The translations under genes were made by a program, and so were the position numbers. The notes beneath the pieces are model-generated. The model saw only the letters and a list, made by a program, of their open reading frames with translations, searched no databases and was not told the origin of the DNA. Below, in pieces: positions 6,210-19,206 of a stretch of 64,000 nt of DNA; position 1 is the stretch's first letter; every line of letters begins with the position of its first letter. The DNA lies in the NCBI GenBank assembly GCA_963665095.1, contig OY762069.1, positions 5,120,001 through 5,184,000 of the forward strand. The letters run 5' to 3'. Source of the DNA: an uncultured Desulfobacter sp. (GTDB lineage: Bacteria; Desulfobacterota; Desulfobacteria; Desulfobacterales; Desulfobacteraceae).

Positions 6210-9200
6210 TTAATCGGTTACATTGATGGACCCTCCGATAAGCGGGGCCGCTCCCGAAGGAAAACTTGCGGAGTTTGAGGCCCTGGCGACAATAATATAG
6301 CTGCCGGCTTCGTCAAATGTATAAGAACAGGTTGGAGAAAGGGAGAAATCCTGAATAACAGTGTAGTTGTTATACGGATCATATTCATCTGTACCATAAC
6401 CGGGGATAAGATCAAACCGGTAGTAGGTGCTGTCGGAACAGTTATTAATTGCCTGGACTGTCATGATGACCAGATCACCGGTTTTAACATCCCTGCCTGA
6501 ACTGAAATCCAGACCGGTTATCTGCAGACAGGTTTCTTGTGAGTTACTGTCTGACACTACGCTGACAGAGCCTCCCATAATCTGCTGATAACCACTTGAG
6601 AATCCCTGGTTGGAGGAGGCCATAACAACAACGATATAATTCCCTGGTTCTGTAAATGTATAGGATGCGGAATCGGAAGAAGAAAAGTTTTGAATGGTGG
6701 TGTAATTGTTATCCGGGTCATATTCTGCCGTACCATAATTCGGGACAATGGCAAACCGGTAATACATCTGGGCATCATCCTGATTCACCGCATTCATTGA
6801 GAAGGTCTGAACCGATCCCTGTTCAATGATTGAAGACGTGTCAATCCGGATATTGTCCACTTGATTTTCGTCATAAGGGTAATATCGAACAGCCAGGTCC
6901 TGAGTAAAGTCGGGAATGTAGACTGAAACGCGACTGTCTGACGGGGTCCCTGTACGAACGGCAACCGGAGTAGTCTGATCCGGGTCGGTCTGCCAGAATT
7001 CGAATTTCATAGGCGTGTCAGATTTTATGTTATCAATGGTTAACAGGGCGCCGGATATGGTTTGCACCGTTGTTTCGTTCCGGTTTTTGTTTAAATAGAC
7101 AAGGCCCTTCTCACCATCTGAGCAGCCTACGGACTGGACCGAAGCATGACTCACTGTAATATCGGAGCCGGAAAAGCGGGAATTAAAATTTTTAAAATCA
7201 AATATTGGAGAGGTACTGCCGTTTTCCACAAATGCGGAAAGCGTTTTCTGGGTTCCATGCATATTATCAGAGAGATGAAGACCATAATCATAAGCCCTGA
7301 CGCCCCCCTGCATCCTGATGCCCGGGCCGGCGGCGCCGCCGGCAAGCTCTGTAAACCACAACCGTGTTGTGATCATTTCATCATCCGACTCTTCGAATGA
7401 GGAGAAATATGACGGGTTGGACGTATCCGGCATCCAGCCGTCTGATGGCCCCCACTCTCCGTTTAATATGGGTTTATTATGCAGCTGATTGGTGCTGAAC
7501 CATGAAATCGCTCTGGATTGTTCTTCCACTACAGCCGTGTCCATATAATCAGCCGGATTATTCCAGGGCTCTCTGTTTCCGGGAAAATAAAGATGGGGCA
7601 AAGAGGCATCAAACATATTGCTGTAATATGCGAAGTTGCCCAGTGCGCCGCGGGGGTCAAGGGCTGTGGTTGATGAAAAAATCAGGTGGGTGCCGTCAAG
7701 GGATCTGATGTAATCTGCCAGTTCTGTTACAAAGGCAACCCGGACTGATGCATCTGTATTTGCATCTGAATCGGCAATGGTCCATTCCCAGGAATCCCAC
7801 TCGTTGAGGATTTCATATCCGATTACCGAACCCGGGTATCCGCTTTGGTTTACCTGGGTAATCACCCATTGCCAGCGGGCTTTGCACATGGACAGTGCCT
7901 CGTCACTGTGAAAGAATTCATTGATATCACTTAAAGGGCCGCCGTTTGAAGCGGACCAGGCTGTCCTGGAAAAATAGTCATCGTAATAAAAGGTATCGAA
8001 CGGGCTGATAATTAAATATATTTCCCTTTCATAACACAGTTTGAGCAGATCCTTAAGAAAGGTGCCCATGGCAGTGTTATAGGTGCCCATGGGGAATTCA
8101 ATCCAATAGGCCCCGTTTGTGCCGTTAAAGTTTGCGTTGTTGCTTACGTTTAAAGAAAAATCTTCAAGAAAAATCCGCATGGTATTGATGCCGTTTTCTT
8201 TAAGCGTGTCCAGGTATGAGGTGACGGTTTCAAGGGCGTTGGCTTCTGAGGAAAAGTCGTAAAGCGTACTGCCCGTCCATACATACCCCTGGTACAGGTA
8301 ACGGGTGGCCGCATCCTGCATGAGTAAGTGATGGCCTACCGGAATAAAGTTGGCACCGTCTTCCCTCATGAAATACCGTCCTCCGGGAGCCGGAAAAACA
8401 TTTCCTTTGTAGGTCTGCCGGTCCAGATTTGAATTAAAAGCCCATACAGCTGGAGTTGTAACGGGCCCCAGGGTTGATACAGTGCCGCAGTTGCCTTCTT
8501 CGTCATAGGCCCGGACAGCAAAGTAATAGGCCGTATTGGGTTCAAGGCCCATTACCCTTGCAGAGGCTGTTCCCCCTGACCAGGGGACCGGCAGATTTAA
8601 AGGCCAGTCACTGCATTGGGAAAAATTGCTTTCATTGATGGACGAAGTGGCATATTTTACCTCAAATCCATGACAATCTCCGCCCTCTCCCTCATCTTCT
8701 TCAGCAGACGTCCACTGCAGCTTCACTGAATAAGGACGAACCTCCGACACGGAAATAGAGCCGACAGAACCAGGGGCAGTTATGTCCGAAGCCGGATGAA
8801 ACTGGAGGGGGATATATGCGTCAGGCCCCTGCAGACCTGACTGGGACGCGTTGTCTGCGCTGCATATTAATTCCACATATTCGTCCGGGCGGATCGGCGT
8901 GGTAAACCTGGCACTGGCAGGCGTGATGGACCTGTTGTCGGACCAGTCCCTGGTTCCGCCTGTATCATCCGAAATAACAATGGCATTTATCTTCATCCAG
9001 TCTCCCTGGCCGGGGGGATTCCTTAGGATAGCACTCCACGGGATTTCAACTTCAATGCTGTAACCGGTATCTGTATCTGAGTCATCATTGACCGTACCGT
9101 AATGGCTGACCATATAATTTACACCGGAGGGAAGTTCTCCCGGCCCTGCAAGGCCGGCGCAGCCACCACTGCCGTTTCCCTGGTTGAAACTTCGTCTTGA

Positions 9201-9665
9201 AACAATTCCGGTTCCGTCCTGGGGGTCGGTGAGATTGCCGATGTTCACTGCAAGATACCGGTCAGAGTCTGTCAGGTATTCCCCGCCTGAGTTGTCCGGA
9301 TCAAAGTACCACTCAATGGCGTCGTCATCATAATGTTCCCAGTATTCTCCAGAGCCATCGCCGCCTCCGTCCGCCTGAAGGTTCTGATCCTCGACATATG
9401 CGCCAAGATAGAGATATGAATCGTCATAAGCAAAGTAAAGCCGGATCCCCAGTTTATTGTGAAATCCGCGGCTTAAACGGATCATGTTCTCCTCAGGCCA
9501 TTCGCCGGAAGAGATTTCACCATCAATAACCGGGGTTTTTTCCATGCAGAGAATTTTTAAAGGGACCTCGCCGGCATAGGATGAGCCAATCGTTATTAAC
9601 ACGACGAAGGTTGGAATCAGGATTGATGCGAAAAAATTGCGGGGTTTCCCGTATGTTGGGATCAT
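6210..9665 (-). CDS. Secreted modular glycoside hydrolase: CBM9/DOMON-like + FN3 + GH5-like barrel + two C-terminal Ig-like repeats
   Basis: Signal peptide ending SSYA; PVIDG...YLYLGAYVED; FN3 GLEPNTAYYFAVRAYDE; GINTMRIF, YEILNEWD (acid/base) and ILNGEWG (nucleophile); GGAGG RBS before ATG 9665. Confidence 0.75.
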   Translation of the reverse strand: MIPTYGKPRNFFASILIPTFVVLITIGSSYAGEVPLKILCMEKTPVIDGEISSGEWPEENMIRLSRGFHNKLGIRLYFAYDDSYLYLGAYVEDQNLQADGGGDGSGEYWEHYDDDAIEWYFDPDNSGGEYLTDSDRYLAVNIGNLTDPQDGTGIVSRRSFNQGNGSGGCAGLAGPGELPSGVNYMVSHYGTVNDDSDTDTGYSIEVEIPWSAILRNPPGQGDWMKINAIVISDDTGGTRDWSDNRSITPASARFTTPIRPDEYVELICSADNASQSGLQGPDAYIPLQFHPASDITAPGSVGSISVSEVRPYSVKLQWTSAEEDEGEGGDCHGFEVKYATSSINESNFSQCSDWPLNLPVPWSGGTASARVMGLEPNTAYYFAVRAYDEEGNCGTVSTLGPVTTPAVWAFNSNLDRQTYKGNVFPAPGGRYFMREDGANFIPVGHHLLMQDAATRYLYQGYVWTGSTLYDFSSEANALETVTSYLDTLKENGINTMRIFLEDFSLNVSNNANFNGTNGAYWIEFPMGTYNTAMGTFLKDLLKLCYEREIYLIISPFDTFYYDDYFSRTAWSASNGGPLSDINEFFHSDEALSMCKARWQWVITQVNQSGYPGSVIGYEILNEWDSWEWTIADSDANTDASVRVAFVTELADYIRSLDGTHLIFSSTTALDPRGALGNFAYYSNMFDASLPHLYFPGNREPWNNPADYMDTAVVEEQSRAISWFSTNQLHNKPILNGEWGPSDGWMPDTSNPSYFSSFEESDDEMITTRLWFTELAGGAAGPGIRMQGGVRAYDYGLHLSDNMHGTQKTLSAFVENGSTSPIFDFKNFNSRFSGSDITVSHASVQSVGCSDGEKGLVYLNKNRNETTVQTISGALLTIDNIKSDTPMKFEFWQTDPDQTTPVAVRTGTPSDSRVSVYIPDFTQDLAVRYYPYDENQVDNIRIDTSSIIEQGSVQTFSMNAVNQDDAQMYYRFAIVPNYGTAEYDPDNNYTTIQNFSSSDSASYTFTEPGNYIVVVMASSNQGFSSGYQQIMGGSVSVVSDSNSQETCLQITGLDFSSGRDVKTGDLVIMTVQAINNCSDSTYYRFDLIPGYGTDEYDPYNNYTVIQDFSLSPTCSYTFDEAGSYIIVARASNSASFPSGAAPLIGGSINVTD

Positions 9666-9694
9666 GGTTCCCTCCTGGTGCTGGTTAAACATTA

Positions 9695-10840
9695 TTACCG
9701 GAACGATTTATAAAGTTTTAAAAAATGAGAAATTACAACTCTATCTGTATACCGGTTGAGTATTTCGCTGTAAAGATTCTCCGGCATTTTTTTATATATG
9801 TCCGGGTGTTTGATGATATTGCAAAGGGCCATGCAGATGGCCTCTGCATCACTGGGTTTGACAAGGATTCCAGTGACATTGTTCCGGATCAGCTGGCTAC
9901 ATCCGGGAACGTTTGTTGTAATAACCAGCCGGCCGACAGCACCTGCTTCAATAAGAATTCTGGGTACGCCTTCTCCATACCGGGTCGGCAGTGCAACAAC
10001 ATCCACCTGCTGAATCAGAGACGGCATGTCATCTACCTGCCCGAGCCATTGAATTTTTTTTGTCACGGCAAGTGACTTGATTTCTGCTTTAGAGTAAGCG
10101 CCTTTGGCCTCAGGGTCAAAAATACCGGCAACCAGCAGATCGCAGGGGAAGCCTTTTGCTTTTGTTTTTTCTACGGCCTGGATCAGGGTATCCAGCCCCT
10201 TGTTTTTCAGCAGACGGGCTGCAAATAATACGCTGAGCCTGTTTGAAGGGGGCTTGGGAGTATATTGGAACCGGCTGGTATCAATGCCGGCTCCGGGAAT
10301 ATGGATCAGTCGTTGCTTTTTTTTCAGGCCGCTTTTTTTAAACTCGGCTTGATCGCCAGTGTTTTCAAAGACAAAGGCACCCTGGTTTCCTTTAGCTGCC
10401 AGTTTATACAAAGAAATAATGAGTTTTCGGATAAGTTTGAAATAAATCTCCTGGCTCGAAAAAACAGCGCCAAGGCCGGTGATGCTTTTAATGGAGGCAA
10501 TACCAAGTTGATTTGCTGCAATGCCTGCGTAAATATTGGGCTTGACGGTAATGCTGTGTACAATGCCCGGTCGTAATCGTTGAAGCGTTTTGTAAATTTG
10601 AAATGCACTTTTAATTTCCTGTACCGGATTGACCCCGCTGCGGGACAGTTGGATATGAATACAGTCAAAGCCCAGGCTCTCCAACTCAGCCTTTAACCCC
10701 GGTGTCACAAAGGCTGCAATTATATATACCCTGTAACCTGCCACCAGTGATGCCATAGCCCTGTTCAGCCAATGGAGCTTGAAATACCAGTCTACATTGA
10801 CAACATACGCCAGTTTGGGATTGTCAGGTTTTTGATCCAT
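9695..10840 (-). CDS. GT4 glycosyltransferase (CapM/PglA-like)
   Basis: VHSITVKPNIY, FAARLLKNKG, YGEGVPRILIEAGAVG, TNVPGC. Confidence 0.9.
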   Translation of the reverse strand: MDQKPDNPKLAYVVNVDWYFKLHWLNRAMASLVAGYRVYIIAAFVTPGLKAELESLGFDCIHIQLSRSGVNPVQEIKSAFQIYKTLQRLRPGIVHSITVKPNIYAGIAANQLGIASIKSITGLGAVFSSQEIYFKLIRKLIISLYKLAAKGNQGAFVFENTGDQAEFKKSGLKKKQRLIHIPGAGIDTSRFQYTPKPPSNRLSVLFAARLLKNKGLDTLIQAVEKTKAKGFPCDLLVAGIFDPEAKGAYSKAEIKSLAVTKKIQWLGQVDDMPSLIQQVDVVALPTRYGEGVPRILIEAGAVGRLVITTNVPGCSQLIRNNVTGILVKPSDAEAICMALCNIIKHPDIYKKMPENLYSEILNRYTDRVVISHFLKLYKSFR

Positions 10841-11777
10841 CTTTTGATCCGTAGCGAAGAATTTTTTTTATGGGGTCGGTTTGTCCAAATCTGTTGAAAT
10901 TACCGGTTATCCCGTCCCGAATACCAGTTATAAATAATTTTAACCCGGCTGAGTCAGGCGAATTTTTCAGGATAAAACCGGCCAGGCGAACAAGCTTGAA
11001 AAACGCCAGCCCCAGAAAAGCTGGTCCTGTGCATAGAGGGCTAAGACAAAAAATATTCCGTGCAAGGAAATAGATTTTCCAGGCAGGCATCCGGTTATTC
11101 GGTTCTACATTGTGAAAGAATTTTAACTCCGGTATAAAAACAAGGCGATATCCTGACTTGTGAAGCCAAAGCGTATAAAAAATATCATCGTAGTAGATGA
11201 ACAGGTTCGCGTTGATGGCGTCCCTGGTCTGCTGCAGGACATCAAACCTGATAAAAAAACCTACAAATGAGGCTGCTTCCACAGGAGTGATCGCATTGCC
11301 TATGTCTTTTGGAGTGATGAGCATTTTATTTCGCCCTGAAAGGTATCTGAAAAGGCGACCCGGGGTTGATGGATAACGCTTTATTGGCGTATTCATCAAT
11401 GGAAGAGGATCTCCCGGGGCACGTACATGGCAGGCAACGGCATGGTAATTTTTCAGGTTGAATCGCCTGAACTTTTCAATAAGGTCTTCATCAGGCAATG
11501 CGTCATCATCAAAAAAAACAACCCAGTCAGTTTTTATATGACGGGTAATCCAATGGGTGCCAAAGGAAAACCCCCCCGCACCTCCGATATTTTTAATGTG
11601 AACGGCAGTCAGCCGGGAATCTTTCAGCCCATTCAGGTATTCTGTCGTTCCATCCGTGGAGCCGCAGTTTACCACCACAATACCATGGAAATCCTGGGCA
11701 AACGTTCGGGAGATGGTCGTTTTCAGTTTGTCAAGGCGGTTGTGGGTGACAATCAAGGCCGTTATGTTTTGTCCCAA
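10824..11777 (-). CDS. GT2 glycosyltransferase (GlfT1-like, possible galactofuranosyltransferase)
   Basis: VTHNRL, NIGGAGGF, FFDDDA, ASFVG, FIYYDD. TTG start; overlaps the next GT4 gene. Confidence 0.8.
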   Translation of the reverse strand: MGQNITALIVTHNRLDKLKTTISRTFAQDFHGIVVVNCGSTDGTTEYLNGLKDSRLTAVHIKNIGGAGGFSFGTHWITRHIKTDWVVFFDDDALPDEDLIEKFRRFNLKNYHAVACHVRAPGDPLPLMNTPIKRYPSTPGRLFRYLSGRNKMLITPKDIGNAITPVEAASFVGFFIRFDVLQQTRDAINANLFIYYDDIFYTLWLHKSGYRLVFIPELKFFHNVEPNNRMPAWKIYFLARNIFCLSPLCTGPAFLGLAFFKLVRLAGFILKNSPDSAGLKLFITGIRDGITGNFNRFGQTDPIKKILRYGSKDGSKT

Positions 11778-12073
11778 GATAAGATAATCCTGTTTTATTC
11801 CTGTTTGTCAGGCCCAGGTGATTTTTTTCAAACACTCAGGTGGTTTACTGAATCTTCATATTTTGAGGGAAACGTCGAAAATATCCGGAAATTTGGCCTG
11901 GAAGTCAAGCAAAAAGAGACAGAAACTCCCAGAAACGAATAGGCGATGTTTTCTGCAAATTTTCTCTCCATGGCACTTTTGAATATTTTTAAGACCGTGT
12001 CTGTTGTCTGATTCTTTTACCTCAGAAGGAGTCCGTTGAATTCCAATAAGAGACACCCAATGATCTTTCTGCG

Positions 12074-14155
12074 TTAATTTTGATCTATGAAACCGATTCC
12101 GGTTAGCAGGAAAGACAGCTCTCTGACATCTGTTGTGCCTTTGTCAAAAAACGAAGGTACGTAAGCCTTATCTGATGTAATTAAAAAAGATGTCCGATGG
12201 CCAAACGCCAAGGTGTCGGGCAGGTCAAAAATTAATTTCTGATAGCCTCTTACAATATTTTTTTTGCTTAGTTTAATTCCATCAATGGATAGTGTTACGG
12301 CATTATGGTAAGAGCGCCACGCTTCAGGTACATATATCTCAACGGCAAATTGTATTTTTCCTTTTTTCTGTTCCGGAACGGCCATTTCCCCGGATAAATG
12401 CCGGCCGACCCAGCCATCATTGAATAATCCGTCAAAAAGAGAGCGCTTTATCTGATCACCATGATAATACATCGGTGCTTTTTGGGGAGGGGCAATGGAT
12501 TCGTTCATATGGATTACCTGGTCCTTAAATGATTTAGGGCGTCTGTCTGTTGTGTAGATACCGTTTTTCTGGACAGAGAAAAACATCTCAACATCATCAA
12601 TGCAAATATCTTCTCCCATATTTTCGATTTGAAGCGTTCCCTGTCTTACCGCAGGTAAATCACTACAGGAAATCAACTGGGATTTTAAAGAGGACATGGT
12701 AATATGTTCTGTCTTGAGTACCGCGTCGTTTTTGTCTTTTATTGTTATTGAAACCGCTCCGTTTTCAGCAGCACCCTGTTCAGGTTTTGCTGTGAATTGA
12801 ACCGTTACACAGATGCTGTTGTTATCCGGTGGCGGCCCGGCTCCCTTGAGGTGAAAAGACTGATTAATACTGCCGGATCTATGAAGCAGCACCTCGAATT
12901 CATTTTCAGCAGTTTTCTTTTTTACATGTTCGCCCTTTATTACGCACCACCCCTTTAAATCTCTTTCAAATGAGCTGTTGGCCAGTAAATTGGCATTTAA
13001 ATCATCCAGTGCCCATAGTGCATAGCCTATGGTTCCCTTGGAGATGAGCGGGGCAGATTTGTCAATGAATTTGGTGAGTTCATCCGATGCTATTTTGGTG
13101 TTTTTTTCAAAACCAATGGTATTGTCTATGAAATTAAACTGATCAATAAATATCTGATTGTCTGTTTTTGTTTTGATGGTATCGATAAGGTATTTCAATC
13201 GGGCAATTGCCGTATCGGCACTTGCAATATCTCCATTATTGGGCGCCCCCCACGCCGGTGTATAGTAAATTGTGGTGATGTCACCCTCACCGTTCAAATC
13301 AAACGTCTTGTCATGGCAGATATATTTTCTGTCATCATTGGACGGGTCGCAGTCCACCCGGACCTCCATGGACAGGCCAGGGAATAATTGCTTTGTTCTG
13401 GAGAATATAGAAAGGAGATACTCGTCCCAGAATTCATAAAATAATGCAACTGCCTTGGAGTCTCGGGAAGGAATGGGGACTTGAGCATGATCTGTAAATT
13501 CCTGGTTATAATAACGGGATATCTCTTCAATAGAATATTTTTTTAAGAATTCATCAAATTTGAGCCTGCCGGCGATTTTCAATCTCAAACTTAAAGGAAT
13601 TCTCATGAGGTCCAGAAGGAAAAAATCTTCCCAGGTGATAAAGCCAAATAAAAAATTATCATGTTCCTGTGAGATCTTGTAAAGCTTTTCAACGTAGCTG
13701 CCCCATGCATCCCATGTATTGCCGTCTGTGTTTATGGAAATAATTCTTTCCATATGGTCGGGAGTGCTTGGGACCTCTCCAATCTCATGGGCATACCCAA
13801 AACGGAAAATGACGTTTAAGCCGTGTTCCCCGGCCATATGCATTAGGGTTTCAAGATGTTGAAAGTATTCTTCTTTGAAAATAACGGGCGCAATGGAATA
13901 TTGAAATCCGGACCAGGGGATAATGACAACTATGGTATTGATTTTATTGTCCTTCAGGCGGGTGAAATCCCTGGTCAGGTTGTCCGTATCAAAATTGCTC
14001 CAGAAAGATGGTGCCCAGTGGCCGCTTGTATAATGTACTGCAGCAATTTTTTCATGGCTGAATACAGCCCCAAAGCAGTTGATTGGTACCAGAAACAGCA
14101 GGCATAACACGATAAAACAGTGCATGGATTTTTTAATCTGCTTTTCTTTGGCCAT
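12074..14155 (-). CDS. Secreted GH-A-clan-like TIM-barrel protein with CBM-like and C-terminal beta-sandwich domains
   Basis: Hydrophobic N-terminus; DFTRLKDNKINTIVVIIPWSGFQ, GFITWED, NSSFE (CBM-like start), DGWVG...DVRELS tail. Confidence 0.55.
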   Translation of the reverse strand: MAKEKQIKKSMHCFIVLCLLFLVPINCFGAVFSHEKIAAVHYTSGHWAPSFWSNFDTDNLTRDFTRLKDNKINTIVVIIPWSGFQYSIAPVIFKEEYFQHLETLMHMAGEHGLNVIFRFGYAHEIGEVPSTPDHMERIISINTDGNTWDAWGSYVEKLYKISQEHDNFLFGFITWEDFFLLDLMRIPLSLRLKIAGRLKFDEFLKKYSIEEISRYYNQEFTDHAQVPIPSRDSKAVALFYEFWDEYLLSIFSRTKQLFPGLSMEVRVDCDPSNDDRKYICHDKTFDLNGEGDITTIYYTPAWGAPNNGDIASADTAIARLKYLIDTIKTKTDNQIFIDQFNFIDNTIGFEKNTKIASDELTKFIDKSAPLISKGTIGYALWALDDLNANLLANSSFERDLKGWCVIKGEHVKKKTAENEFEVLLHRSGSINQSFHLKGAGPPPDNNSICVTVQFTAKPEQGAAENGAVSITIKDKNDAVLKTEHITMSSLKSQLISCSDLPAVRQGTLQIENMGEDICIDDVEMFFSVQKNGIYTTDRRPKSFKDQVIHMNESIAPPQKAPMYYHGDQIKRSLFDGLFNDGWVGRHLSGEMAVPEQKKGKIQFAVEIYVPEAWRSYHNAVTLSIDGIKLSKKNIVRGYQKLIFDLPDTLAFGHRTSFLITSDKAYVPSFFDKGTTDVRELSFLLTGIGFIDQN

Positions 14156-14358
14156 ATTTTCATCTCCATTTTTTAAGAAAGTGTTGTTGCTGTCAATATA
14201 TCTGGAAAAAACCATAAATGTGTTTTGTGGTACTTGAAATTATGATATGCACTTAGCCTGTATGACTGATAGAAATCGAACAACTCTACCCAAAATCCAT
14301 AAGGCTTACAAGCTTAAAATGGGCGTCTTCTAATCTTTTGAAATTTATGGGCTATTTT

Positions 14359-15705
14359 ATGAATCTTAAGAAGTTTTATACAGTTGCCAGGATGATTGCC
14401 ATCTGTTGGCTGGTGTTTATCATTGCGTTTTTTTATGGGATTTATATCTATGCAAATCAAATATGGCCCTATCCGATTGTCGATGCAATGCAAAAATTTG
14501 CAGCTGGTGATCCGGAAGAAAAAACCTCCCTGGTGGAAAAATTGGAAAATGACCTGGATATTGTCCCGGCCAGGCACATTGTTGATTGTGAGAAAAAATA
14601 TCCGATTCCTTCCGGTTATAAAGAACTGAAAGGAATTGAGATGAATGCCCGCCGTCAGCTCCCCAGGGTTTTCTTCTCAGATGCAGCCCCCAGAGGATAC
14701 CGTTTGATCTACGGCGTTTTTGATTTTAAAAAATCCCTTCATGGCGCTATTCTTTTCGGGCCTGACGGGAATGTTGAAAATGTCTGGTATACCACTCAGG
14801 AGGATGTTGAGTGGCATCACAGGCCTGACAAAAACTGTTACCCGCATGGGTTCGTCATTGGGCATGATGGTACCATCGTAACCGCATATGATGGAGGAAC
14901 TTCACTGACCAAATATGACTGGTGTGGAAATATTCTCTGGCGGAATAAAGGCGCCTTTCACCATTCAATTTCCTTTGACGCAGATAATGCCATTTGGGTA
15001 TGGGGTAAGGCCGGGGAGGTGGAGAAACCGGACGGAAATCATCTGATAAAGGTTGATTATCAGACAGGCAGGATAATCAAAGAATTTCATATGAACGAGG
15101 TGATAAACGCCAATCCGGACATTGATATTTTCAGTATTATGCAGGAAGACACCCCTGAAGGTTCGAAATGGATATTCGATGCCTGGCATACCAATGACAT
15201 TGACCCTTTACCCGAAGAACTGTCTGGTTATTATCCGCAATTTGACGCCGGAGACCTGTTGATCAGTCTCAGGGCGATTGACCTGATTTGTGTCATTGAT
15301 CAGGATAATTATAAGGTAAAGTGGTGGCGTCAGGGGATGAGCCGAAGGCAGCATGATCCGGATTGGAACACCAAAGGAACCATTACCATATTCAATAACA
15401 ATATGCACCGGGGATTTTCCAATATTTTAGAAGTAAACCCTAAGACGTATGAATCTAACAAGGTCGTTGATGGCGAACGATATCAATTTTATTCCTGGAT
15501 GAGGGGCAAACATCAGTTACTTCCCAATGGGGGCTATCTGATAACCTCAACCCAGCAGGGCAGGGTCTTTGAAATCAACGAAAAAGGTGATATTGTCTTT
15601 GAGTTTGTAAATTTTTTCGGGAAGGACGAAGGCTTTTTGGCTCTGTCGGAGGCTGTTTTTCTCCCGCTGGATTATTTTAAGGAGTTACCTGAATGCACAA
15701 AGTAA
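14359..15705 (+). CDS. Arylsulfotransferase (ASST family, PAPS-independent), membrane-anchored
   Basis: N-terminal TM helix; FHHSI, WHTNDID, LISLR, RQHDP and QLLPNGGYLIT motifs typical of ASST beta-propellers. Confidence 0.8.
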   Translation: MNLKKFYTVARMIAICWLVFIIAFFYGIYIYANQIWPYPIVDAMQKFAAGDPEEKTSLVEKLENDLDIVPARHIVDCEKKYPIPSGYKELKGIEMNARRQLPRVFFSDAAPRGYRLIYGVFDFKKSLHGAILFGPDGNVENVWYTTQEDVEWHHRPDKNCYPHGFVIGHDGTIVTAYDGGTSLTKYDWCGNILWRNKGAFHHSISFDADNAIWVWGKAGEVEKPDGNHLIKVDYQTGRIIKEFHMNEVINANPDIDIFSIMQEDTPEGSKWIFDAWHTNDIDPLPEELSGYYPQFDAGDLLISLRAIDLICVIDQDNYKVKWWRQGMSRRQHDPDWNTKGTITIFNNNMHRGFSNILEVNPKTYESNKVVDGERYQFYSWMRGKHQLLPNGGYLITSTQQGRVFEINEKGDIVFEFVNFFGKDEGFLALSEAVFLPLDYFKELPECTK

Positions 15706-15899
15706 TAAGTGTTTTAATAATAATTTTGCTTTTTCCTTTGCCTGTTTATGCTTATGTGGGGCCGGGGCTCGGCTTAGGCGCCCTGGGGGCCGTACTTGGA
15801 GTGATCTTTTCTATATTTTTAGCTATATTTGCTATTTTCTGGTATCCCATTAAACGACTAATCCGGAAAATAAAGGGTGAAAAACAAGCGGAGCGGTGA
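15693..15899 (+). CDS. Small membrane protein: signal peptide, YVGPG motif, one TM helix, basic tail
   Basis: 68 aa; overlaps both neighbours; VYA|YVGPGLGLGALG...WYPIKRLIRK. Confidence 0.8.
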   Translation: MHKVISVLIIILLFPLPVYAYVGPGLGLGALGAVLGVIFSIFLAIFAIFWYPIKRLIRKIKGEKQAER

Positions 15900-17374
15900 T
15901 GTCGGATAGTTTGTTTATATATCTTCCGTCCATTGTTGTTTCGGTTATAGCTGTTGTCGAGCTTTTATTTCGGCTCCCCTTTGCCAGTCACGTAAATCAG
16001 GTGCGGAATATCTCTTCTAAAGCTATTCATACCGTAACCAGTTCAAAAGTTTCAGATCGCTGGAAAGAAAAGGTTTTACCTGTTTATTCATTTAAAATTT
16101 TTTGTTCCAGTATCATGTTCGGTATTTACCTGGTTGCGGCTTTTTCTGTTTTCATTTCCATCTATGCCCTGGTGGGGCTTGTTTTTTTTGATACCTTCCA
16201 TGATTCGGTTAAAAGCCTTTACCAATGGGAAATTGAAGGTATTATCTGTATTGTCGGTATCGGATACGCCTGGTTTCGGAAGAACATGGCCAGGCGCGGA
16301 TTAAAAGAATCCAATGCGGATGATTATTCTGCATCTTCCAAGCTTCTTCACCACATGGCCCTTGGCAGTAATGCCATCAGGGAAATCTCCTTTGATATTG
16401 ACTGCATGGTGACCAAGGCTTCCGTTGATGTCGGAACAGATGCGCCGGTATATGTGTCCGGCCTGGCAAGGGCCGGGACAACCATTCTCATGGAATCCCT
16501 TTATAAGACAGGTTTATTTGCCTGTCTGACATACAGGGATATGCCCTTTGTTCTGGCCCCGGGGCTGTGGTCAAAGATTTCAGGACGCCATCGTACCCAA
16601 TCAGAATTAAAGGAACGGGCACATGGGGACAGGCTTCTGGTAAACTATGACAGCCCGGAAGCCTTTGAGGAGGTGTTCTGGAAAACGTTCTCTCCCAAAA
16701 AGTATATCCATGATTCCCACCTTGAAATCTGGAACCGGGATGACAATGAACTTGTGGAGAAATATCGAAGATATGTCGCCAATATCATTCATACAAAGGG
16801 GGATGGCAGCGCCTTAAAAAAGCGTTACCTTGCAAAAAATAACAACAATTTACTCCGCATAAATACAATTGTCTCAGCTTTTCCGGATGCTAAAATCATT
16901 GTGCCCTTCCGTCACCCTGTGGATCATGCTGGTTCTCTTATGGCACAGCATACACGATTTTTGGAAGTACATAAGAGTGACCCATTTGCACGTGCTTATA
17001 TGAATTGGCTGGGGCATTTTGAATTCGGTTCTGAATTCAAACCGTTTAACATGGGGGCGGCCTGTCTGCCCGAGTCAACTGACGTTCTTCTGGATCAGGC
17101 CTACTGGCTGGAATATTGGCGGCAGATTTACCAATATATTATAAAAAAACATACCGGCCAGGTGATCTTTTTTGACTATAATTATTTTTGCCAGTTCCCG
17201 GCCAAAGTCTTTGAGCGGATTGAGGATAAGCTGGGGATAAAAGAGAATAAACTGCTCAGTCTGGCCGGGAGCATCAAGCCTGCAACCTCATACTGCGCTG
17301 CATCAGGAAAAGGCCTCTCTTTCGAAGTTAAGAAAGTCTATCAGATGCTCCGGGAGCTATCTATAACGGATTGA
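15896..17374 (+). CDS. PAPS-dependent sulfotransferase fused to an N-terminal multi-TM domain
   Basis: About three hydrophobic segments in the first 130 aa; 5'-PSB SGLARAGTT, KNNNN, 3'-PB FRHPVDHAGS. Confidence 0.85.
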   Translation: MMSDSLFIYLPSIVVSVIAVVELLFRLPFASHVNQVRNISSKAIHTVTSSKVSDRWKEKVLPVYSFKIFCSSIMFGIYLVAAFSVFISIYALVGLVFFDTFHDSVKSLYQWEIEGIICIVGIGYAWFRKNMARRGLKESNADDYSASSKLLHHMALGSNAIREISFDIDCMVTKASVDVGTDAPVYVSGLARAGTTILMESLYKTGLFACLTYRDMPFVLAPGLWSKISGRHRTQSELKERAHGDRLLVNYDSPEAFEEVFWKTFSPKKYIHDSHLEIWNRDDNELVEKYRRYVANIIHTKGDGSALKKRYLAKNNNNLLRINTIVSAFPDAKIIVPFRHPVDHAGSLMAQHTRFLEVHKSDPFARAYMNWLGHFEFGSEFKPFNMGAACLPESTDVLLDQAYWLEYWRQIYQYIIKKHTGQVIFFDYNYFCQFPAKVFERIEDKLGIKENKLLSLAGSIKPATSYCAASGKGLSFEVKKVYQMLRELSITD

Positions 17375-17487: not shown

Positions 17488-19206
17488 TTAATTTACAGCG
17501 CCTGTAAAATCAGTCCCGTCATCCTTGGCCAGTACCCCTTCCTGAGTGATACTGATATTGACGGTTTCAGCAGTTGGGCTGCCATCCTGATCAATCAGGG
17601 TCACCCTGGCTTTTCCGGTTGTTTGAATTTCGAGGGAACCACGGGTTCTCCAGAGAGAACTATTACGTGAGGCTATTCCTTGAACAGCCCAGAGACCCTG
17701 CAAATCAGAAACCGTGTACGGGGTATTTTGTCTGACCCATATTTTCATTTCACTTGCACCGGGGGAGTCTGTTGTCCATGTTTCAGTGGATACCAATACT
17801 GTTTTATTGGCATTCAGGTTGCCTTGAAATTCCCAGGAATCTCTTCCTGTCATGGTAATTGCGCCATTTTGATCAATGTTGAATTGGCCGGTTACGGTAT
17901 CCTCTTCTCCATCAATTTCTACTAAGGAGGCGACAAAGAACCCATCGGCATTGATAGTTGCTGTTCCACGAATCCACCAGGGGGAATCTGATCCGGATGC
18001 CAGCCCATGAAATGTCCAGGTCCCCTGCAGATCGGAAATTGAGTAAGTATCGGCCTGTTTGACCCACATTTTTATTTCACTTGCCCCGGGATCTCCGGAA
18101 CTCCAGGTGTCTGTACTTGCAATGACGGTTTTTCCCACATCCAGATTCCCCGAGAAAGTATTACCGCCATTCTGGGATACCGTGCCGTAGCTGGAGATTT
18201 GAAGGGCACCCGAAAGAGAATAAGACGCTTCGTTGCTGTCTGTTACATCCGCCTGATAAGATCCGTCTGCCTCGATTTCCAAGGTGGCTCTTTCCCACCA
18301 TGGGCCTCCGGGCGCGGTTGCCAGGCTGTGGGAAGACCATGTCCCGCATAAATCAGAAATTGAATAAGAGGTGCCCTGCTTAAGCCAGACATCCATCTCT
18401 GCCGCCCCGGTATCCTCTGAACTCCAGGTCTGTGTCCCGACAGCGATTGTGGATTGTTCCGTATCTGTTGACTGGCAAACTGCGGTTCCTCCGATTATGG
18501 GCAGATCCTCTGGCTCGCTTTCGGGGTCTGTCACAGCCCGAACAACGACAATATATTGTCCTTTGTTCGGAAAAACGTATTCGCAGGTGTTTTCAGTGGC
18601 GTAATCCTGAACAACCACCCATGGGCTGTTTTCATACTCATTGGTTCCGTGATTTCCACGGTAAAACCATTTAAAATAGATATCATCGCCGTTGCCACTT
18701 GACGCATTAGCTGTATAGGTCACGGCAGTGCCGGAATTCACCGGGCCGTCTGAGTCCGATGACAGTCCGGAGATGTGGACTGCGTTTGTATTGCCGATCG
18801 CTACGACACTGCCAATAATAGGCAGCTCCGCCGGTTCGTTTTCAGGATCGGACACAACCCTGGCAACCACAATATATGTTCCGTCTGAAGGGAACGTGAA
18901 TGTGCAGCTGTTATCCAATGAATAGGGTTGCATCACCACCCATGGTGAATTCTCATAATCTGCTGTGCCATAGTTGGCACAGTAGAAAAATTTGTAGTAG
19001 AGGTCCGCATCGCTTTGGTCTGATCCCTCGACGGAAAAAAGGACAGGCAAATTTGATTCCAATGTCCCTGAAATATTCATGGTAAAGGGAACAATCTGAT
19101 TGTCTGAAGCCTGGCTTGGCCATGGGAACGTCAAAAAAATAAAAGCGAAAAAAAGAACGGTTTTAATATTTTTCAACACTGGAAATTTTGAAACAATTTT
19201 CATCAT
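17488..19206 (-). CDS. Secreted repeat protein: two Ig-like repeats plus three ~110-aa beta-rich repeats
   Basis: Signal peptide ending SQA; NYGTxxYENSPW twice; SDLxGxW...W.R three times. Confidence 0.75.
   Translation of the reverse strand: MMKIVSKFPVLKNIKTVLFFAFIFLTFPWPSQASDNQIVPFTMNISGTLESNLPVLFSVEGSDQSDADLYYKFFYCANYGTADYENSPWVVMQPYSLDNSCTFTFPSDGTYIVVARVVSDPENEPAELPIIGSVVAIGNTNAVHISGLSSDSDGPVNSGTAVTYTANASSGNGDDIYFKWFYRGNHGTNEYENSPWVVVQDYATENTCEYVFPNKGQYIVVVRAVTDPESEPEDLPIIGGTAVCQSTDTEQSTIAVGTQTWSSEDTGAAEMDVWLKQGTSYSISDLCGTWSSHSLATAPGGPWWERATLEIEADGSYQADVTDSNEASYSLSGALQISSYGTVSQNGGNTFSGNLDVGKTVIASTDTWSSGDPGASEIKMWVKQADTYSISDLQGTWTFHGLASGSDSPWWIRGTATINADGFFVASLVEIDGEEDTVTGQFNIDQNGAITMTGRDSWEFQGNLNANKTVLVSTETWTTDSPGASEMKIWVRQNTPYTVSDLQGLWAVQGIASRNSSLWRTRGSLEIQTTGKARVTLIDQDGSPTAETVNISITQEGVLAKDDGTDFTGAVN

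Follow-up and report, generated by a model that had tools for sequence, protein, structure and literature searches.

Here we describe a gene cassette in a 64,000-nucleotide stretch of DNA (the window; contig OY762069.1) from an uncultured Desulfobacter sp. We found that it encodes a module of four parts: an arylsulfate sulfotransferase (ASST) anchored by its N-terminus, a micro-protein with a Y-x-G-P-G motif, a three-helix membrane helper, and a sulfotransferase of the type that uses 3'-phosphoadenosine 5'-phosphosulfate (PAPS). The four-part cassette is real and widespread. It probably works as a relay, in which Tyr21 of the micro-protein is the covalent carrier of sulfate from PAPS, by way of the sulfotransferase, to the ASST. 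We favor this reading because Tyr21 is invariant, the two enzymes are predicted to lie on opposite faces of the membrane and ASSTs need an aryl donor. It is also favored because the four parts stand together in most loci, with contig ends explaining most of the misses, because a gene for adenosine 5'-phosphosulfate (APS) kinase adjoins some cassettes, and because relatives of the peptide with a YxDPG motif swap their enzyme pairs.

An initial annotation of the window had already proposed a sulfation relay. Our data support that proposal in part; it had missed the helper as a separate part, the link to Oxa1/YidC and the wider peptide superfamily. Its three overlapping genes and their motifs were confirmed by the open reading frames (ORFs), by Pfam matches, and by the HH, HxN, R, QHD and VYA/YVGPG motifs (the slash marks the predicted signal cleavage).

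The four parts occur together across many phyla

We kept 80 sulfotransferase loci from 171 that were confirmed. Their titles name Desulfobacterales, Alpha-, Gamma- and Zetaproteobacteria, Bacteroidota, Planctomycetota, Myxococcota, Nitrospirota and Nitrospina. Of these loci, 73 contain the ASST, 74 the peptide and 75 the membrane domain; 69 contain all four parts. Contig ends cut six of the 11 incomplete loci; three others (L006, L021 and L023) have no peptide and two (L035 and L076) no helper. The peptide gene lies between the ASST and sulfotransferase genes, on the same strand, in 82 of 92 cassettes. Two ASSTs accompany one peptide in 6 of the 92 fetched cassette stretches, which is expected if one donor arm feeds several acceptors. 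The helper is fused to the sulfotransferase in the window and is a separate gene in 54 of 76 matches (window counted), and we therefore treat it as a protein component of its own. Thus the multi-transmembrane N-terminal domain first ascribed to the sulfotransferase is present in the window and is not an integral part of that enzyme.

In a sample of 251 genomes of the organism's own class the peptide profile matched in 39, and wider regions were fetched for 38 of 45 rows. A free YxGPG peptide occurs in 18 of these genomes, our own included (G012 was counted by its score and adjacent enzyme matches). The sulfotransferase was found in 21 genomes at E 1e-30 and the ASST in 23 at E 1e-25. The peptide is present in 18 of the 19 genomes with both enzymes; the exception is G014, where the ASST and sulfotransferase genes stand side by side (L246) and neither peptide nor helper was found. 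Samples from two other phyla (401 and 351 genomes) gave peptide matches in 26 and 17 genomes, and 40 of 47 rows were fetched, the rows left out being two seed loci and five weak rows. These 40 regions comprise 19 with YxG(P/A)G, 20 of a YxDP group (the motif of L218 was not displayed) and one false match. In each of the 19 YxG(P/A)G regions both enzymes are encoded no more than 6 kb away; two of these regions repeat loci already met in the sulfotransferase set. Thus the free YxGPG peptide, whose occurrence apart from sulfotransferases the initial annotation had raised as a concern, was accompanied by both in 18/18 genomes and 19/19 regions. In G093 (L251 and L115) the peptide and two ASSTs are on one contig and the sulfotransferase on another.

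Tyr21 of the micro-protein is invariant

Nothing in Pfam or NCBIfam matches the 68-residue ORF above cut-off, and the public names of peptide and helper relatives are "hypothetical". We found 257 close homologs of the peptide and, in an index-free search, 2,981 representatives at 50% identity, which rules out a chance ORF. The window peptide carries the motifs VYA/YVGPG...WYPIKR. As the relay proposal had called for, the tyrosine is conserved: all 121 close homologs examined keep Tyr21, as do all 149 stretches from the best 150 of the 2,981 representatives and all 35 rows across the peptide classes, these rows having been chosen by the motif itself. Gly23, Pro24, Gly25, Pro52 and Lys54 are conserved as strongly as Tyr21, the rest of the peptide drifts while Tyr21 stays invariant, and the C-terminal tail is variable and basic.

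Either the YVGPG or the WYP tyrosine had at first been put forward as the carrier. Tyr51 (WYP) is kept in 144 of the same 149 stretches, where it is sometimes Phe and Tyr21 never is. WYP was ruled out as the carrier since its tyrosine is Ile or Phe in 2 of 74 sequences and is absent from related peptide classes; this settles the choice between the two tyrosines for YVGPG.

An Ala precedes Tyr21 in 145 of the 149 stretches, in keeping with cleavage by signal peptidase, a prediction that rests on the A-x-A pattern. In Bacteroidota loci (L030, L040, L077, L080 and others) in-frame stops lie 9-20 codons upstream of the Tyr and the leader is only 3-14 residues long. A free N-terminal Tyr is therefore not universal, and these peptides, which have no normal signal peptide, must reach the N-out state by another route. 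The peptide has no Lys or Arg in residues 21-51 and about five in 52-62.

The two enzymes are predicted to face opposite sides of the membrane

ASSTs cannot use PAPS. ORF1 matches PF14269 (E 3e-34, 119 bits, cut-off 27), and the ten best Foldseek matches of its model (predicted local distance difference test, pLDDT, 93) were all Cpz4 or E. coli ASST (E 3e-14 to 9e-13), with Cpz4 (9kf4) the best; a single-sequence PDB search gave no match. The protein contains H201-H202, H277-x-N279, R305 and Q331-H332-D333. We found H202, H277, N279 and H332 in 65 of 65 relatives and R305 in 59 of 65, and the Arg and QHD align with Cpz4. The E. coli and Desulfitobacterium ASSTs are described as having the same catalytic residue set, His252, His356, Asn358, Arg374 and His436 in EcAST (PMC13426309; bioRxiv 10.64898/2026.10.08.757636), to whose numbers the window residues were mapped by order and motif. 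We infer from family, fold and catalytic set that ORF1 is an ASST, which would use an aryl-sulfate donor. ASSTs are reported to require an aryl donor, to take tyrosine and Tyr-peptides as substrates and to work by ping-pong chemistry between phenols with many donors accepted; the natural substrates and roles of most are not known (PMC13426309).

A hydrophobic segment spans residues 12-30 of the window ASST, and 62 of 65 relatives have such an N-terminal segment; the charge bias favors N-in in only 38 of these 62. Together with what is known of the family, the segment and the charge bias predict that the ASST faces the periplasm.

The C-terminal domain of ORF3 matches PF13469 at residues 184-356 (E 5e-13). 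It contains GLARAGTT with an invariant Arg191, as well as an invariant Arg338 and Ser346, all conserved in 80 sulfotransferase relatives; we take GLARAGTT to be the 5'-phosphosulfate loop and Arg338/Ser346 to be the 3'-phosphate Arg/Ser. These motifs align to TPST1, and the best PDB profile matches are tyrosylprotein sulfotransferases (TPST1 E 9e-7), with patchy alignment. Judged by family and motifs, the domain would be an active PAPS-dependent sulfotransferase. Among sulfotransferases without a detected helper domain, 76 of 78 have no hydrophobic segment, with the start taken as the closest Met no more than 40 residues away from the domain, and in the fusion the domain follows the third transmembrane helix (TM3) and a basic linker. 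Both features predict a cytoplasmic enzyme. The ASST and the sulfotransferase, which the initial annotation had required to lie apart, are thus predicted to be in different compartments. An APS kinase gene is directly adjacent and co-oriented in 12 of 96 cassettes. The genome of the window has two APS kinase matches.

The helper possibly belongs to the Oxa1 superfamily

The window helper has no Pfam, NCBIfam or PDB sequence match, and its ESM Atlas matches were only hypothetical clusters. Its model (pLDDT 95) has helices at 2-25, 28-47, 53-96, 100-108 and 110-133, with 7.7 Lys/Arg in the hairpin against 0.8 in the TM2-TM3 loop. By root-mean-square deviation its closest whole-domain fold matches were 6w6l_6 (Z 7.9, root-mean-square deviation 4.5) and 7tut_8 (Z 7.6, root-mean-square deviation 3.9) over 121 residues each; these scores tie with those of unrelated helical proteins, and helices of ATP-binding cassette transporters also align over the full length. 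We take both chains to be TMCO1, which only the 6w6l title names. YidC, Ylp1, EMC3 and Get1 were not among the fold matches listed for the helper. A PF01956 search of five genomes gave nothing over cut-off, and its best match was to a large ORF of the multi-pass transporter type that has no relation to the cassette. The Oxa1 superfamily (YidC, Ylp1/MJ0480, TMCO1, EMC3) is described as a group of assembly and insertion factors with a three-helix core, a cytosolic helical hairpin between TM1 and TM2 and an N-out/C-in orientation (PMC5868721). The predicted window helper has this layout, with three transmembrane helices, a cytosolic TM1-TM2 hairpin and its C-terminus inside.

In a sister clade of the same sulfotransferases (support 1.0), 9 of 11 members carry another helper family in the same slot, and in L119 it occupies the same fusion position as the window helper. 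Profiles of these sister helpers (A5 and A8) match archaeal MJ0480 (5c8j) at E 5e-4 over TM1-hairpin-TM2, the only match under E 0.1. One of 15 helpers, that of L211, matches EMC3_TMCO1 (E 0.003), and a single-sequence PDB search with the L120 helper gave no match. The two helper types align in register only at an hhalign probability of 1-10%. The sister helpers are thus Oxa1-family-like with moderate support from sequence matching. The window helper possibly belongs to the Oxa1 superfamily, with the indirect support, from sister helpers and from loci with YidC, stronger than the direct match.

Related peptides stand beside other enzyme pairs

The 20 YxDP regions contain a kinase-methyltransferase in 13 cases, relatives of cytidine diphosphate (CDP)-glycerol transferase in three and a sulfotransferase in two. 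A sulfatase-fold protein occurs in 15 of the 20 and an ASST in none. The kinase-methyltransferase of these 13 (for example L209:6322-10104), among the 40 regions from the two other phyla, has WbdD as its best PDB match (E 3e-5). In L124, L125, L127, L128, L130 and L144 a YxDPG peptide likewise stands with a kinase-like/S-adenosylmethionine (SAM)-methyltransferase (SFRDPSG) and a membrane sulfatase-fold protein. Loci of this kind are possible methylphosphate relays.

In L123:7459-15000, L126:5752-12464 and L228:6528-7847 a YLDPG peptide accompanies a protein of the CDP-glycerol glycerophosphotransferase family, to which it is fused in L228. A YidC-family gene goes with this arrangement, L123 has a sulfatase-fold protein, and L123 and L126 have phosphoenolpyruvate mutase genes; these could be phosphonate export relays. 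YidC (PF02096) stands beside a YxDPG peptide in L123, L126 and L128. In L229:5098-8561 and L230 a YIDPN peptide is found with a sulfotransferase and a sulfatase-family protein in place of the ASST, which suggests a second way to build a sulfate relay. A YIGPGAG peptide is fused N-terminally to an approximately 710-residue phosphodiesterase-family protein (PF01663) in L111-L114, L116, L117, L140, L141, L146 and L147. These loci usually add a second such protein and an approximately 190-residue PF13469 sulfotransferase, often a sulfatase-family protein, and in six loci a 280-residue Oxa1-like helper.

A tyrosine that stays constant amid changing donor and acceptor enzymes fits the pattern expected of a carrier, and this is our main argument against a purely structural role. 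We can tentatively go further, on a reading that we would hold with less than even confidence: the tyrosine of Y-x-(G/D)-P-G may belong to a general export platform, in which an interchangeable cytoplasmic enzyme loads it, a dedicated Oxa1/YidC-type protein carries the tip across and a matching outside transferase decorates the surface. Loaders would then be the sulfotransferase, the kinase-methyltransferase and a CDP-alcohol transferase, and unloaders the ASST or a sulfatase-fold enzyme. Cargo would be sulfate, methylphosphate and phospho- or phosphono-alcohols, with the window as the sulfate branch. If this were true, an insertase fold would have been repurposed as a carrier flippase.

The cassette in Desulfobacter and its neighbors

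Coordinates in the window are given in Table 1. The cassette has a GC content of 0.44 against 0.49 for the genome. It was found in 3 of 7 other genomes sampled from the genus, and we therefore regard it as accessory there. Three further, distant ASST-like ORFs lie elsewhere in the same genome (G000:C1:2738686-2747682) with no peptide relative nearby.

Table 1. Positions of the cassette genes, their parts and nearby genes in the window
Feature	Position	Strand	Remarks
ASST gene	14359..15705	+	448 aa from ATG; PF14269; PAPS-independent, beta-propeller, one N-terminal membrane anchor
Tyr micro-protein gene, proposed carrier	15693..15899	+	68 aa; 13-nt overlap with ASST ORF
Micro-protein layout			signal-like leader 1-20, Y-V-G-P-G-L-G-L-G tip, transmembrane helix 31-49, basic tail
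Codon of invariant Tyr21	15753..15755	+	proposed sulfate-bearing residue
Helper and sulfotransferase fusion ORF	15896..17374	+	492 aa; GTGATG overlaps micro-protein TGA stop
Three-helix helper domain	15896..16300	+	TM1, basic helical hairpin, TM2, short helix, TM3; possibly Oxa1 superfamily
PAPS-dependent sulfotransferase domain	16313..17374	+	PF13469; predicted cytoplasmic loader
Divergent run	9695..14215	-	713-aa unannotated protein, family 2 (GT2) and family 4 (GT4) glycosyltransferases; context only
713-aa protein	12074-14215	-	signal-like N-terminus
Secreted-looking proteins	6210-9692 and 17488-19206	-	shared repeated Tyr-rich module

The cassette had been placed inside a glycan locus. 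It does lie near glycosyltransferases; it stands at the edge of their region, is transcribed away from them, with the GT2 and GT4 genes 2.6 kb off, and is not in an operon with them. The genes of the divergent run are candidate makers of the local acceptor. When clustered and adjacent genes of relatives were compared, this run was not a conserved neighbor of the cassette. The 713-residue protein, upstream of the two glycosyltransferases and divergent from the ASST, has no Pfam or NCBIfam match. The secreted-looking proteins, whose Tyr-rich module gave a weak match to NF010681 (triple tyrosine motif), are possible surface glycoproteins and candidate local acceptors.

Taking the nearest gene on each side of 96 cassettes gave 180 genes, of which 54 fell in annotated clusters; 77 of the 126 others were scanned, and most of those set aside were either short or very long ORFs. 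Counted by hand, 18 of the 96 cassettes adjoin a gene for a glycosyltransferase, O-antigen ligase, acyltransferase, MdoG, Wzi or nucleotide-sugar enzyme. Such a gene lies anywhere in the fetched stretch in 28 of 79 cases, a raw share from recurrent clusters only. A surface glycan, the acceptor first proposed, is therefore plausible and not established. Only six of the sulfate loci clustered have a gene for a membrane-bound O-acyltransferase (MBOAT). No phenol- or pyrone-making synthase was among the recurrent neighbors, a survey that would not cover an unlinked one, and no sulfate-starvation or aryl-sulfate uptake genes recurred near the cassettes.

Discussion

Our data point to a relay with four steps. 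The sulfotransferase, recognized by its family and motifs, would sulfate Tyr21 from PAPS. The uncharged, Gly-rich tip of ten residues would then be moved from one membrane face to the other, for which the helper likely provides an Oxa1-type groove; this is the weakest step, and it could take place as repeated flipping or as loading before a single insertion. The ASST, whose residues are in place, would next take sulfate from sulfo-Tyr, an aryl sulfate, onto His332, and would finally hand it to an acceptor outside the cytoplasm. This acceptor is probably a glycan or glycolipid of the cell surface and would vary from host to host.

Several observations weigh against this relay. Cleavage of the signal peptide would leave Tyr21 outside, away from its loader, so a crossing step is required that is unproven. 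Contact between the parts is presumed. The fold match of the window helper lies below Z 8 among helical decoys, its hhalign probability to sister helpers is as low as noted above, a helper gene is missing from two cassettes (L035 and L076), and most kinase-methyltransferase loci showed no detectable helper. Sulfotransferases of the same family occur without the peptide in L006, L021, L023, G014, G029 and G059, as do ASSTs in G097, G118, G130 (region not fetched) and G154. The co-occurrence is given as counts with no P value, since related genomes do not count as independent. The match to TPST is weak, and any PF13469 member would be expected to give one. In only 18 of 96 cases does a gene for glycan or envelope functions stand directly beside the cassette.

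Of the other explanations, the one that fares best, and that we still consider unlikely, makes the micro-protein a structural or assembly subunit, with a diffusible small phenol carrying sulfate as in Cpz8/Cpz4 and the helper only inserting or assembling the complex. There is precedent for a small-molecule shuttle (PMC6731281) and for Oxa1-family proteins as assembly and insertion factors (PMC5868721), the glycines, Pro24, Pro52 and Lys54 are conserved like the tyrosine, and some cassettes do without peptide or helper. However, a gene that could make the phenol or pyrone is not among the conserved neighbors, Tyr21 is never replaced by the Phe that Tyr51 tolerates, and peptides next to unrelated enzyme folds retain the Tyr tip, a constancy not needed in a scaffold surface.

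We give distinctly less credence to the sulfated micro-protein being the end product, a surface signal or ligand from which the ASST edits or removes sulfate. In favor of this view, tyrosylprotein sulfotransferases are the known structures closest to the loader in sequence, and the cassette forms a unit by itself that in most cases has no glycan gene next to it. However, the exposed part is only about ten residues long and sits at the inner membrane, a sulfatase would be a simpler eraser than a transferase, tandem ASSTs suggest several acceptors, and in other loci the peptide is fused to enzyme N-termini.

Least probable of all is an inward relay for sulfur scavenging or detoxification. Aryl sulfates in the environment would give up their sulfate to Tyr21 through the ASST, and the sulfotransferase would pass it back to 3'-phosphoadenosine 5'-phosphate. 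Gene content and topology would be identical and ping-pong ASST chemistry with many donors would allow it, but APS kinase, a PAPS supplier, stands next to 12 of 96 cassettes, genes for sulfate starvation or aryl-sulfate uptake do not recur nearby, and the sister systems use one-way donors (for example ATP/SAM and CDP-alcohols).

The outward relay that we prefer resembles known systems without being any of them. DltX/DltB/DltD and PatA/PatB are described as tyrosine acyl shuttles (PMC12148441). There, as proposed here, the invariant Tyr of a small membrane protein or peptide connects an activated donor in the cytoplasm with a transferase outside it, and this transferase forms a covalent intermediate. 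As far as those systems are described in that source, their Tyr is in a C-terminal hexapeptide, whereas ours is N-terminal (YxGPG); their cargo is acyl, whereas ours would be sulfate on a proposed Tyr intermediate; their loader is an MBOAT with its own channel, whereas ours is a soluble-type sulfotransferase; and their unloader is an SGNH enzyme, whereas ours is an ASST. No sequence relation was detected. The likeness to DltX suggested in the initial annotation thus holds as analogy and not as homology.

In caprazamycin biosynthesis Cpz8 is reported to charge a small polyketide (pyrone) shuttle from PAPS, which Cpz4 then uses to sulfate a sugar hydroxyl (PMC6731281, PMC13426309). As in our cassette, a PAPS sulfotransferase and an ASST are encoded together, and Cpz4 is the best structural match of the window ASST. 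In contrast to the polyketide, the shuttle proposed here would be a gene-encoded membrane protein, the enzymes are predicted on opposite membrane faces and there is a membrane helper. Likewise the predicted helper layout, the sister-helper match to MJ0480 and the YidC of other cassettes recall the Oxa1 superfamily, whose known members, as described, serve membrane-protein biogenesis, whereas the helper gene described here serves a single cassette and is in some cases joined to that of an enzyme. TPST1/2 share the Pfam family of the loader and are its best PDB profile matches, and the loader, like them, would sulfate a protein tyrosine. TPSTs act in the Golgi lumen on tyrosines in acidic context, as an end modification, whereas Tyr21 has no acidic neighbors and would be a transient carrier.

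We set the cassette apart as new because neither its carrier nor its helper falls in a Pfam or NCBIfam family and because it lacks the defining features of Dlt/PatAB and of Cpz8/Cpz4. A search of titles and the beginnings of abstracts in the openly licensed PMC and bioRxiv literature, with supplements and subscription papers outside its scope, found no description of the peptide or the cassette, which is apparently undescribed.

If the relay is true, the cassette names a gene-encoded natural donor for one large group of ASSTs. Tyrosine shuttles would extend from acyl groups to sulfate, and probably to phosphate esters, without an MBOAT channel, and Oxa1/YidC proteins could gain a role outside protein biogenesis. 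The cassette also hints at how marine, sediment and soil bacteria could make sulfated surface polymers.

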